64,000 nt of DNA, from assembly GCF_056746865.1 (NCBI RefSeq), contig NZ_CM163382.1; one strand, 5' to 3'. Position 1 is the stretch's first letter, and every line of letters begins with the position of its first letter. The position numbers and the translations under genes were made by a program. Under the pieces are notes generated by a model. That model did not search any database. It was not told where the DNA came from and worked only from the letters and a program-made list of their open reading frames with translations. Below, piece by piece: positions 1,102 through 25,790 of this stretch.

Positions 1102-3360
1102 TTACTCTTCGCTATCACCGCTGCTGGCACGGCGAGGAGAGTCGATCTCAACACGATCGATACGCTGCAAACCGCGCATCAACGTACCGCGGCGTCCACG
1201 TTCGCCAGTGACTTTCTGTAACTCTTCCGGGCGCAGTTTAATTTTGCGTTTCCCAACATGAATGGTCAGCGTGCTTTGCGGCGGCAGAACGTACAATTGC
1301 GCCAGACCATCTTCTCCACGCGCGGCTTCTGCCGATGGAATGTTGATAATCTTGTTGCCTTTGCCCTTCGACAGCTGCGGCAGATCACTTACCGGGAACA
1401 TCAACATACGGCCTGCCTGAGTGATTGCCAGCAGCATATCGGAAGCATCTTCAATCACCACCGGCGGCATAACATGGGCATTTTCCGGTAAGGTGATCAA
1501 AGCCTTACCTGCACGGTTACGCGCCACCAGATCGTTAAAGGTGCAGACGAAACCGTAACCCGCATCGGAAGCCATCAGCAGTTTCTGATCGTCGCTTTCC
1601 ATCAGCATATGGTCAACGGTCGCCCCAGGCGGCAACGTTAATTTGCCGGTGAGCGGCTCGCCCTGACCACGCGCCGACGGCAGCGTAATCGGGTCAATGG
1701 CATAGCTACGACCGGTGGAATCAACAAACACTACCGGTTGGTTGCTCTTACCTTTCACCGCCGCTTTGAAGCTATCACCCGCTTTATAATTCAGGCCCGG
1801 CGCGTCGATATCATGGCCTTTAGCGCTGCGTACCCAGCCCATCTGCGACAGCACAATGGTGACAGGTTCAGACGGCAGCATGTCGTGCTCGCTCATCGCT
1901 TTCGCTTCTTCGCGTTCCTGCAACGGCGAACGACGATCGTCACCGTAGGCTTGCGCGTCTGCCTGCAGTTCTTTCTTCAGCAGGTTATTCATTTTACGCT
2001 CGGAAGCCAAAATGCCCTGCAACTGGTCGCGCTCTTTTTCCAGTTCACTCTGCTCACCGCGAATCTTCATCTCTTCCAGTTTGGCAAGATGACGCAGTTT
2101 CAGTTCGAGGATCGCTTCCGCCTGGGTTTCCGTAAGGCCAAACCGCGACATCAGCGCCGGTTTCGGTTCATCTTCATTACGAATGATCTCAATCACTTCG
2201 TCGATATTGAGAAACGCCACCAGCAAACCTTCGAGGATATGCAGGCGCTTGAGGACTTTCTCCAGACGATAGTTCAGTCGGCGGCGCACGGTATCGCGGC
2301 GGAACACCAGCCATTCGGAGAGGATTTCCAGCAGGTTTTTCACCGCCGGACGACCATCCAGACCGATCATATTAAGGTTAATACGATAGCTCTTTTCCAG
2401 ATCGGTGGTAGCGAAGAGGTGGTTCATCACCTGATCCATATCCACGCGGTTGGAACGCGGCACAATCACCAGGCGGGTCGGGTTCTCGTGGTCAGATTCA
2501 TCGCGCAGATCGTCAACCATCGGCAGCTTTTTGTTGCGCATTTGCGCAGCAATTTGCTCCAGTACGCGCGCACCTGAAACCTGATGCGGCAATGCGCTGA
2601 TAACCACCGCGCCATCTTCTTTCTTCCACACCGCGCGCATACGCACTGAACCACGTCCGTTCTCGTAGATTTTACGGATCTCGGCGCGCGAAGTGATAAT
2701 TTCCGCTTCAGTCGGATAATCCGGCCCCTGCACGATATCCAGCAGCTGATCGAGCGTGGTTTTCGGCTGGTCGATTAATGCGATTGCCGCCTGAGCCACT
2801 TCACGCAGGTTATGCGGTGGAATATCGGTCGCCATGCCGACGGCAATACCGGTGGTGCCGTTAAGCAAAATGTTTGGCAGACGGGCAGGTAGCATTTTCG
2901 GCTCCTGCAAAGTGCCGTCGAAGTTTGGCACCCAGTCAGCCGTCCCCTGCCCCAGCTCGCTCAATAGCAGCTCGGAATATTTCGACAACCGGGATTCGGT
3001 GTAACGCATTGCCGCGAACGATTTCGGATCGTCCGGCGCGCCCCAGTTCCCCTGACCATCAACCAGCGGATAACGGTAAGAGAACGGTTGCGCCATCAGG
3101 ACCATCGCTTCATAACAGGCGATATCGCCGTGCGGATGGTATTTACCCAGTACGTCACCGACGGTACGGGCCGATTTTTTAAATTTGGCGCTGGCATTCA
3201 GGCCCAGTTCAGACATCGCATACACAATGCGGCGCTGAACAGGTTTCAGACCATCACCAATAAACGGCAACGCACGGTCCATGATCACGTACATGGAGTA
3301 GTTTAAGTAGGCGTTTTCCGTAAATTCATGTAGCGCAAGGCGCTCTGCCATATCGCTCAT
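1102..3360 (-). CDS. parC: DNA topoisomerase IV subunit A
   Basis: 752 aa ORF, N-terminus [32 protein letters not shown] typical of ParC; correct length. Confidence 0.95.
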
Positions 3361-23606: not shown

Positions 23607-24380
23607 ATGTCAGTACCTCTCATTCTGACCATACTGGCGGGGGCAGCCACGTTTATTGGCGCGTTTCTCGGCGTTCTCGGGCAAAAACCCTCGAACCGCT
23701 TACTGGCGTTTTCGCTAGGATTTGCGGCGGGGATCATGTTGCTCATCTCATTAATGGAAATGCTTCCTGCCGCACTAGCAGCTGAAGGAATGTCGCCTGT
23801 GTTGGGTTATGGAATGTTTATCTTCGGTCTGCTTGGCTATTTTGGCCTGGACCGCATGTTGCCACATGCGCATCCGCAGGATTTAATGCAAAAATCGGTG
23901 CAGCCGTTGCCAAAATCGATCAAGCGCACAGCCATTCTGCTCACTCTCGGCATCAGTCTGCATAACTTCCCGGAAGGGATTGCCACCTTTGTCACTGCGA
24001 GCAGCAACCTGGAGCTGGGCTTTGGCATCGCACTGGCCGTTGCGTTACACAATATTCCTGAAGGTCTGGCGGTTGCAGGCCCGGTTTACGCGGCAACGGG
24101 GTCTAAACGCACCGCGATTCTGTGGGCGGGGATTTCTGGACTGGCAGAAATTCTTGGTGGTGTGCTGGCGTGGTTAATCCTCGGTAGCATGATTTCCCCG
24201 GTGGTCATGGCGGCAATCATGGCGGCGGTTGCAGGAATTATGGTGGCGCTCTCGGTTGATGAATTAATGCCGCTCGCCAAAGAGATTGACCCTAATAATA
24301 ACCCCAGCTATGGCGTACTATGTGGAATGTCAGTGATGGGATTCAGTTTAGTGCTGCTACAAACGGCGGGAATTGGTTAA
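23607..24380 (+). CDS. zupT: Zinc transporter ZupT (ZIP family)
   Basis: ORF trimmed to [18 protein letters not shown] with upstream TAAGGAG RBS; 257 aa. Confidence 0.9.
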
Positions 24381-24389
24381 AAACAACAT

Positions 24390-24420
24390 CAGAAGTTGTC
24401 CAGCGCATGGACAACTTCTG
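24390..24420. terminator. Stem-loop between convergent zupT and small membrane ORF
   Basis: Inverted repeat CAGAAGTTGTCCA-GCGCA-TGGACAACTTCTG. Confidence 0.5.
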
Positions 24421-24437: not shown

Positions 24438-24608
24438 TTATTCTACCTTTTCGGCTGTCTCTTCTCTCGTACTGTTTAAGTATTTGTTCCGCGCTTCAAG
24501 CAGTGCGTCTCTGTCCTGGCGAAACGCCCGACAATAACGTTTCAAATGCAGGAAATAACCCACCACAACCAGAGCAATCAATACAATCCAGTACCAGGCG
24601 ATAAACAT
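24438..24608 (-). CDS. Small single-TM membrane protein (56 aa)
   Basis: ATG at 24608 preceded by AAGGGTAAAAGG RBS; MFIAWYWIVLIALVVVGYFL hydrophobic helix then charged tail; track ORF begins at an upstream TTG. Confidence 0.45.
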   Translation of the reverse strand: MFIAWYWIVLIALVVVGYFLHLKRYCRAFRQDRDALLEARNKYLNSTREETAEKVE

Positions 24609-24869
24609 CCTTTTACCCTTAATATTTAACAATACTAAACATTTAGCGCATAAATTTCACATATCCTTTTTCGGATATATTCATATGGTCGCATAATAAC
24701 GGAACAATTATATGATTTTGATCATAATGAAAAAGAATGCCTGATATTAATGAAATTTTCTCATAGAAAGAGAAGCGGAATTAACATCTTGCATAGCAGG
24801 GAAAAATAAAAACCGAAGCCTGCTACAACTTCGGTTTCTTGATTAAGGCAGTAAATTAAGCAGCGGTTT

Positions 24870-25523
24870 TCAGCTGGCTTTACGCTCATGTGCCTGACGA
24901 TAAGCCACCAGGTCTTCAATAGTCACGAGCGCCATATTGTGTTTATTGGCAAACTCAATGCACTCTGGTGCACGCGCCATCGTGCCATCGTCATTAGTCA
25001 GCTCACACAGCACACCAGCCGGTTTAAAGCCTGCCAGCGTCATCAGATCAATAGTCGCTTCAGTATGGCCGCCACGCGTCAGTACACCACCAGCCTGAGC
25101 GCGAAGTGGGAAAACGTGGCCCGGGCGATTCAGATCAGAAGGTTTTGCGTCATCGGCAATCGCTGCGCGAACGGTCGTAATACGGTCAGCGGCAGAAACA
25201 CCGGTAGTCACACCTTCAGCCGCTTCAATGGTCACGGTAAAACCGGTGCCATAGGCGCTGGTGTTATTTTCTACCATCATTGGCAGATCAAGTTGTTTAC
25301 GGCGATCTTCAGTAATGCACAGGCAAACAATACCGCTACCGTGGCGAATGGTCAGCGCCATCTGCTCAACGGTCATGGTTTCTGCCGGGAAGATCATATC
25401 GCCTTCGTTTTCACGGTCTTCATCATCAAGCACCATTACACCGCGTCCTTCACGCAGCGCAGCCAGTGCATTTTCAACACGTTCGAAAGGCGTACCAAAA
25501 GAGGAAAGTAGCGTCTGATTCAT
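24870..25523 (-). CDS. ribB: 3,4-dihydroxy-2-butanone 4-phosphate synthase
   Basis: 217 aa; [45 protein letters not shown]. Confidence 0.95.
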
Positions 25524-25569: not shown

Positions 25570-25790
25570 CTTAGGAGTGGCGGCATATAGCCAAAATAAC
25601 GTGAGCGGGTCCATGCCCGACAGAATCGTTACTCTCTCCCATCCGGACTCTAACCGTCGGCCCCGGAATTACACCGGATCTGCTGTCCTTTGAGTTCGCA
25701 CCCAAAGCGCTCGCGGGCTTTCAACTGAGTTGATTTACCGCCGGTGGGGAATTTCGCCCCGCCCTGAGAATAAGCGGATTCACTATAACG
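25570..25790 (-). ncRNA. sroG: FMN riboswitch (RFN element, sroG) in ribB 5' leader
   Basis: Minus-strand sequence contains conserved aptamer blocks CAGATCCGGTGTAATTCCGGGGCCGACGGTTAGAGTCCGGATGGGAGAGAGTAACG upstream of ribB. Confidence 0.8.

Follow-up and report, generated by a model that had tools for sequence, protein, structure and literature searches.

yqiD, a conserved Escherichia coli gene between zupT and ribB encoding a predicted single-pass membrane protein

The open reading frame between zupT and ribB is the translated gene yqiD

The spacer between zupT and ribB in the stretch of E. coli DNA analysed here (64 kb in length, hereafter the window) contains a 56-codon open reading frame on the minus strand, and the locus raises the question of whether this frame is a genuine gene, whether it has been described before and what its product might do. 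The frame (24438–24608, minus strand, including the stop codon) begins with an ATG at 24608–24606, ends with a TAA at 24440–24438 and, according to the list of open reading frames and its translation, encodes MFIAWYWIVLIALVVVGYFLHLKRYCRAFRQDRDALLEARNKYLNSTREETAEKVE. An earlier note on this DNA had called it unannotated-looking, which was wrong: the RefSeq annotation of MG1655 carries the CDS "protein YqiD" (WP_000469266.1) at exactly this position, with length, strand and offsets all matching the window frame. The name was given by VanOrsdel et al. 2018 (Proteomics 18:1700064; PMC6001520), whose Table 1 lists YqiD as a 56-aa protein at NC_000913.3 3183381–3183551, flanked by zupT and rib in the strand arrangement > < <. 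The window translation was 100% identical both to the YqiD sequence in that table and to the protein of a small ORF found by tetracycline-inhibited ribosome profiling (TetRP). The gene order zupT(+), yqiD(−), ribB(−), with yqiD convergent to zupT, is common to the MG1655 annotation and the window, and the frame and YqiD of E. coli K-12 (b4756) have the same sequence, the same zupT/ribB position and the same strand; they are the same gene without any difference. The designation "b4756 yqiD" was used as the last EcoCyc locus ID in a 2026 paper. The frame is therefore yqiD (b4756), read here as an E. coli gene with a transcription unit of its own whose 56-residue product is predicted to lie in the inner membrane; we put our confidence in this reading as a whole at about 0.85. 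The gene itself is already known, having been named and shown to be translated in 2016–2018 and included in the current RefSeq; as a discovery it therefore does not matter, and its value lies in the testable handles that it offers.

In a megablast search, the 489-bp zupT–ribB spacer had a match at a minimum of 98% identity in 4432 of 5426 complete E. coli genomes, with yqiD as the feature beneath the match (annotated in 24/24 sampled full-length spacer hits), and at least 80% of the spacer was covered in 4424 genomes. The window and MG1655 were about 1 nt apart across the 489 bp (99.8% identity). A second, divergent E. coli allele of yqiD occupied the same site in 989 genomes. Its spacer was 85% identical to the K-12 type over ~226 alignable nt, its protein was 66% identical to K-12 YqiD (69% by BLASTP), and the two haplotypes were separated by a dS of ~1.3 over 43 codons (L002 positions 2438–2608 compared with window positions 24438–24608). 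The two alleles jointly accounted for 5425/5426 complete genomes, and yqiD was single-copy, with a median of one place per genome. The site looks like an old hotspot of recombination or rearrangement. The sole divergent-allele genome examined, E. coli Z1323CEC0015 (L002), had a fimbrial operon upstream, not ribB–ubiK. RefSeq naming was inconsistent between the alleles, with "protein YqiD" in ~4430 K-12-type genomes and only "hypothetical protein" in the 989 others.

Beyond E. coli, a word-indexed search returned 108 relatives, all from Escherichia, Citrobacter or Salmonella where the source was named, and a profile search run exhaustively over 1.84 billion cluster representatives gave 25 hits only, adding divergent members from unclassified Enterobacter, Kosakonia, Phytobacter/Metakosakonia and Atlantibacter. 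These searches demonstrated that the YqiD family is small and confined to Enterobacteriaceae and that the gene is core in E. coli. Two short ENA/Logan contigs encoded chimeric proteins, one fusing the ORF that precedes ubiK with the C-terminus of YqiD (P0103) and the other joining the first ~70 ZupT residues to a YqiD-like C-terminus, though the genes are convergent (P0124); both are probably assembly or deletion artefacts.

A 56-codon frame in a spacer could be open by chance, its conservation being that of non-coding DNA, for instance the zupT 3′ UTR or a terminator region, and the small size of the frame and the uniformly sub-threshold Pfam/NCBIfam hits described below would be compatible with such an origin. 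We compared the frame with its orthologs by pairwise Nei-Gojobori analysis of the first 43 codons, which align without gaps. The in-frame dN/dS was 0.06 for Salmonella, 0.05 for C. freundii, 0.16 for E. albertii, 0.10 for the divergent E. coli allele and 0.17 for an Enterobacter-like metagenome-assembled genome (MAG), a range of 0.05–0.17. Shifted to the +1 and +2 frames, this stretch gave ratios of about 1–2, with a full range of 0.5–4.3, and contained stops. The changes fell mainly at third codon positions (for example, 7/5/19 at the three positions in the comparison with Salmonella). The yqiD frame is under strong purifying selection.

Published data demonstrate that the frame is translated. 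The supplement of Nakahigashi et al. 2016 (PMC4909307) contains the sORF M_ECK3031_3032_3181573 (minus strand, 3181573–3181403, 56 aa) with the same DNA and protein, and its TetRP initiation site at 3181573 is the ATG of yqiD in the window. VanOrsdel et al. detected YqiD by immunoblot through a chromosomal C-terminal SPA tag in LB, in both exponential and stationary phase, and reported that it had been an unidentified positive in tetracycline-inhibited ribosome profiling (PMC6001520). Translation of yqiD thus begins at ATG 24608, and the protein accumulates in cells in rich medium. Frame-specific selection, the conserved start codon and Shine-Dalgarno sequence, ribosome-profiling initiation, detection of the tagged protein and the RefSeq annotation all argue against a chance frame, which is excluded, the published translation data having refuted it. 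Ribosome profiling and tagged-fusion expression, two of the checks proposed in the earlier note, had therefore already been published with positive results (PMC4909307 and PMC6001520, respectively), and the third was confirmed in the present analysis, the frame being conserved in Enterobacteriaceae.

The start codon was also supported by its surroundings. The Shine-Dalgarno region read from the sequence directly upstream of the ATG (AAGGGTAAAAGG; 24609–24620, minus strand) bears out the good ribosome-binding site first noticed there: its AAGGG core, 7 nt away from the start codon, is kept in Salmonella and Citrobacter, and the motifs AAGG and AAAAG(G/A) are kept across the eight aligned taxa. 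An upstream TTG at 24632, which would give a 64-aa form, was rejected as the start because a 1-nt indel breaks its frame in Salmonella and C. amalonaticus; TetRP marks the ATG.

The yqiD transcription unit and its boundaries

Upstream, the yqiD unit is bounded by the ribB terminator identified by terminator scan (24808–24839, minus strand), which follows the ribB CDS (24870–25523, from the ORF list and RefSeq). An alignment of eight Escherichia, Salmonella and Citrobacter loci defined a conserved upstream region, leader and/or promoter (24609–24728, minus strand), in which conservation held to about −120 from the ATG and then collapsed. The gene upstream of yqiD is ribB in E. coli K-12, C. freundii and Phytobacter, assT in Salmonella, C. 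rodentium and C. amalonaticus, and a fimbrial subunit gene in E. albertii, and all upstream breakpoints fall just beyond the conserved block of ~120–200 bp (L003, L005, L009, L010, L011, L012 and L014). Because the conservation ends at the same place whatever the upstream gene is, the ~120-nt block belongs to yqiD.

The distal end of this block contains a perfect palindrome, TATGATCAAAATCATA (24711–24726, both strands), ~100–118 nt upstream of the yqiD ATG, which is a candidate operator and/or −10 element. It was the sole match to this sequence in the window (0.08 expected), and its arms were near-invariant, at −114 to −119, in the eight Escherichia, Salmonella and Citrobacter loci; the palindrome was absent from the divergent genera. 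The left arm forms the −10 of TTAATA-18-TATGAT (24750–24721), the only σ70-like site returned by the promoter scan. The TATGAT in the palindrome may serve as a −10 on each strand. Inspected by eye, the palindrome has a CRP/FNR-type TGA-N6-TCA core (TATGA-N6-TCATA), with the wrong outer bases for the FNR site TTGAT-N4-ATCAA. Fur (12/19 match) and Zur fitted the palindrome poorly, and it was assigned to no regulator; as a literal string, ATGATCAAAATCAT had no match in the literature searched.

We also considered a structured leader or a known small RNA as the source of the upstream conservation. Comparison of the yqiD leader with Rfam gave chance-level hits only, and RNAalifold returned −4.3 kcal/mol, to which covariation contributed −0.01, that is, no structural covariation, so both candidates were rejected. 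Since the leader matches no Rfam family and lacks covariation, its conservation is at the level of sequence, as expected of protein-binding DNA. Upstream of ribB, the FMN riboswitch RF00050 was recovered in the ribB leader (25627–25775, minus strand, 120.9 bits), as expected from its annotation in MG1655. A sub-threshold Rfam match to the Salmonella sRNA candidate STnc240 (24801–24871, minus strand; 29.1 bits, gathering score 55) spans the ribB stop codon and terminator and may reflect an RNA derived from the ribB 3′ end.

Two published experiments bear on the activity of this spacer. A ~200-bp fragment beginning immediately past the ribB terminator and ending in the first yqiD codons was cloned as a promoter-GFP reporter (2025 preprint), and the reporters of the K-12-type and divergent haplotypes gave consistent expression differences. 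In genomic SELEX with reconstituted RpoS holoenzyme, the zupT > < ribB spacer gave peak no. 153 (map position 3181642, intensity 10.0), assigned to "type C", i.e., downstream of both flanking genes and then puzzling (PMC5493296). Assuming that this study shares the 2006 coordinate system in which the yqiD ATG is at 3181573, the peak is centred ~69 nt upstream of that start codon, at about window position 24677; the peak records in vitro binding at a resolution of ~100 bp on AT-rich DNA. With yqiD in place, this orphan "type C" peak would acquire a target gene. The end of the conserved block at about −120, the reporter construct and the RpoS SELEX peak in the spacer together argue that yqiD has its own promoter. 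Transcription would start within the conserved ~120–200 bp that separate the yqiD start codon from the ribB terminator, a spacer bound by σS RNA polymerase in vitro, and would end at the hairpin at 24390–24420.

This hairpin lies between yqiD and zupT, as the earlier note had observed in describing the two genes as convergent with a shared hairpin. Terminator scan and folding identified it as an intrinsic terminator of yqiD (24380–24420, minus strand) with a 13-bp stem, a 5-nt loop and a T-rich tail. The perfect stem at 24390–24420 starts 10 nt past the zupT stop and 17 nt past the yqiD stop, within the 57 nt that separate the end of zupT from the yqiD stop codon, and its fold of −24.9 kcal/mol corresponds to z = −3.5 relative to shuffled sequences. 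It scored as a terminator on the yqiD strand only (tail ATGTTGTTTT), the zupT strand having no T-run after the hairpin. A hairpin of differing sequence was found at the same place in 7/9 loci, including those of E. albertii, the E. coli variant allele, Salmonella, C. freundii and C. amalonaticus. In 2/9 loci and in Phytobacter massiliensis, the 3′ ends of the two genes overlap or lie almost against each other.

Predicted topology and relatives of YqiD

Hydropathy, invariant residues and AlphaFold2 (AF2) defined one predicted transmembrane helix, FIAWYWIVLIALVVVGYFL, in codons 2–20 (24549–24605, minus strand). Residues 2–20 have a Kyte-Doolittle mean of 2.43, no second hydrophobic stretch is present in YqiD, and residues 1–20 are free of charge. 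AF2 with a homolog alignment modelled residues 2–55 as a single continuous helix (mean pLDDT 73), with pLDDT highest in the membrane part (83–87 across residues 1–20). The single transmembrane helix proposed earlier was thus upheld by hydropathy and by the AF2 prediction, as was the charged C-terminal tail, the last 21 residues containing four K/R and five D/E. Conservation, purifying selection and the published translation back a genuine small single-pass membrane protein, its topology being predicted. According to the positive-inside rule, the K/R-rich flank of a membrane helix faces the cytoplasm. Because the N-terminus of YqiD is uncharged and five K/R follow the helix (residues 21–35), the protein most likely adopts an N-out/C-in orientation, which would place ~35 residues in the cytoplasm, the conserved polar helix included.

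The strongest constraint outside the membrane falls on the juxtamembrane segment HLKRYCRAFRQDRDALLEARNKY (codons 21–43; 24480–24548, minus strand), conserved among orthologs and predicted to be cytoplasmic. In 22 orthologs, the invariant residues were M1, I3, W5, Y6, W7, Y18, H21, K23, R24, A28, R30, D32, R33, D34, A35 and L36, and F2, A4, V9, L10, I11, L13, G17, Y25, C26, F29, Q31, L37, R40 and K42 were at least 90% conserved. The pattern [KR][RH]x[CSY][RK]A[YFC]R[QH][DE]R[DE]A was retained even by the divergent genera. The charged tail that follows (codons 44–56; 24441–24479, minus strand) is variable: past residue 43 there are no conserved columns, only charge persists, and both length and sequence differ between genera. 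At the membrane boundary, His and Cys make up 14% of an 18-residue segment compared with ~1–2% elsewhere in the homologs. Salmonella and Citrobacter typically have C20-H21-x-K-R-x-C26 at this boundary; E. coli has H21/C26.

Database families gave little purchase on function. Homologs from Salmonella, Citrobacter, Kosakonia and Phytobacter that carry the UniRef/NCBI label DUF4051 align end to end with YqiD and have in common with it the core WYW...KRxCRAxRQDRDAL and the ribB/zupT context; the label carries no functional information. A Pfam-A scan of YqiD and six homologs gave no DUF4051 hit even at E ≤ 1, and the model may have been retired. Other scores stayed below their cut-offs, at 19.8 against 27.7 for DUF2621, 14.7 against 27.2 for DUF4381, 14.4 against 23.7 for DUF6526 and 18.2 against 50 for the NCBIfam model NF038143; in each case ~50 residues were aligned, and the likeness came down to a hydrophobic helix with basic or charged residues after it. 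Since these hits lie below the cut-offs and the family changes from homolog to homolog, they indicate compositional resemblance, and membership in DUF2621, DUF4381, DUF6526, ResB or NF038143 was rejected as sub-threshold and inconsistent between YqiD and the six homologs. A profile search of the PDB found no solved relative at E ≤ 1.

Several small single-pass proteins of enterobacteria regulate larger membrane proteins, for example MgrB (PhoQ), MgtS (MgtA/PitA), AcrZ (AcrB), KdpF (KdpABC) and CydX (CydAB). By analogy, YqiD resembles them in size class, in its single predicted transmembrane helix and in having its own small transcription unit, and with 56 residues and one helix predicted by hydropathy and AF2 it falls among membrane proteins of no more than ~60 aa. 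It has no sequence similarity to these regulators, however; compared with KdpF or AcrZ, its predicted cytoplasmic segment is unusually long, with ~22 near-invariant residues. YqiD can be described as a core, strongly constrained and genus-spanning small membrane protein. Handles for characterising it are the near-invariant helix predicted to be cytoplasmic, the boundary His/Cys and the adjacency to zupT, to which the conserved promoter region with its palindrome and σS-holoenzyme binding signal can be added.

Possible functions and the zupT neighbourhood

The searchable literature held no study of the localisation, topology, partners or phenotype of E. coli YqiD; its remaining matches to "yqiD" concern an unrelated Bacillus gene. 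By analogy with the small regulators, we propose tentatively, at somewhat less than even odds, that YqiD works by binding to a larger protein of the inner membrane, which it modulates. The reading best supported by the sequence is a bitopic inner-membrane peptide in which residues 2–20 would form the one transmembrane helix in the N-out/C-in orientation and the functional part would be the near-invariant juxtamembrane helix H21–K42 (KRYCRAFRQDRDALLEAR) with its boundary His/Cys cluster. In the docking proposal, this segment would make the contact with the larger protein; the variable acidic tail would act as a spacer.

A different role that the anatomy of the protein brings to mind is that of a type I toxin-like membrane peptide in the style of Hok, Ldr or TisB, held in check by an antisense RNA, a resemblance resting on the small size, the one hydrophobic helix, the possibly long conserved leader and the intergenic location. 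Such toxins are pore-forming, unlike a protein more than half of which is a conserved polar segment predicted to be cytoplasmic. Rather than being patchy or repeated, yqiD is a single-copy core gene (the 5425/5426 E. coli genomes above) that is syntenic across genera; ribosomes initiate on it, and the tagged protein was easily seen in cells growing normally in rich medium. The leader, in turn, showed neither fold-back structure nor covariation, no promoter-like site was found on the opposite strand between 24300 and 24900 by a consensus scan, which could miss one, and no Rfam sRNA hit above threshold was obtained for an antisense antitoxin at yqiD. Since yqiD is a single-copy core gene whose protein is detected in normal growth and since the scans revealed neither an antisense promoter nor a leader structure, a type I toxin is very improbable.

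As to the identity of a docking partner, the only candidate suggested by genomic context is ZupT, an unlikely one in our estimation, the suggestion coming solely from adjacency. The convergent neighbour zupT (23607–24380, plus strand; RefSeq annotation) encodes a ZIP-family metal permease. A yqiD homolog stands tail-to-tail with a gene of the Pfam Zip family at 11 of 12 distinct loci, counting that of the window: E. coli (both alleles), E. albertii, two Salmonella loci, C. freundii, C. rodentium, C. amalonaticus, an Enterobacter-like MAG, a JGI metagenome contig and Phytobacter massiliensis. The exception is L014, in which the homolog lies between assT and a glutathionylspermidine-synthase-like gene, without adjoining zupT. 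The adjacency has thus been kept in several genera, whereas the other flank has been rearranged in at least three ways.

Combined with the enrichment of His and Cys at the boundary noted above, this neighbourhood suggests YqiD as a metal-responsive accessory or regulatory subunit of ZupT, in which the boundary Cys/His (C-H-x-K-R-x-C in Salmonella and Citrobacter, H21/C26 in E. coli) would ligate Zn2+ or some other divalent cation on the inner side of the membrane and adjust the activity or stability of the permease. The divergent lineage represented by P0117, the L014 homolog, has neither His nor Cys in the boundary segment, so that the sole lineage without adjoining zupT is also the sole one without boundary His/Cys. 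This co-variation comes from one lineage, however, and the sequences are few and phylogenetically non-independent. The L014 homolog, moreover, was kept without adjoining zupT, and since it has no boundary His/Cys, metal ligation is not universal in the family. As the two genes are convergent, they are not co-transcribed; they have separate promoters, and the adjacency may only mark where yqiD arose. The zupT promoter is reported to be constitutive, ZupT works without known partners (PMC7567609), and no Zur- or Fur-like box was recognised by eye upstream of yqiD. We consider a metal-responsive ZupT subunit unlikely on balance, and somewhat more doubtful still the specific version in which an Enterobacteriaceae-only partner would sense cytoplasmic Zn2+ or another cation through its Cys/His and, through its basic helix, gate or destabilise ZupT. 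If true, it would provide post-translational control for ZupT, whose transcription is considered constitutive. In L014, P0117, which is the most divergent homolog (1676–1846, minus strand), overlaps the 3′ end of the convergent glutathionylspermidine-synthase-like gene (1498–1722, plus strand) by 47 nt.
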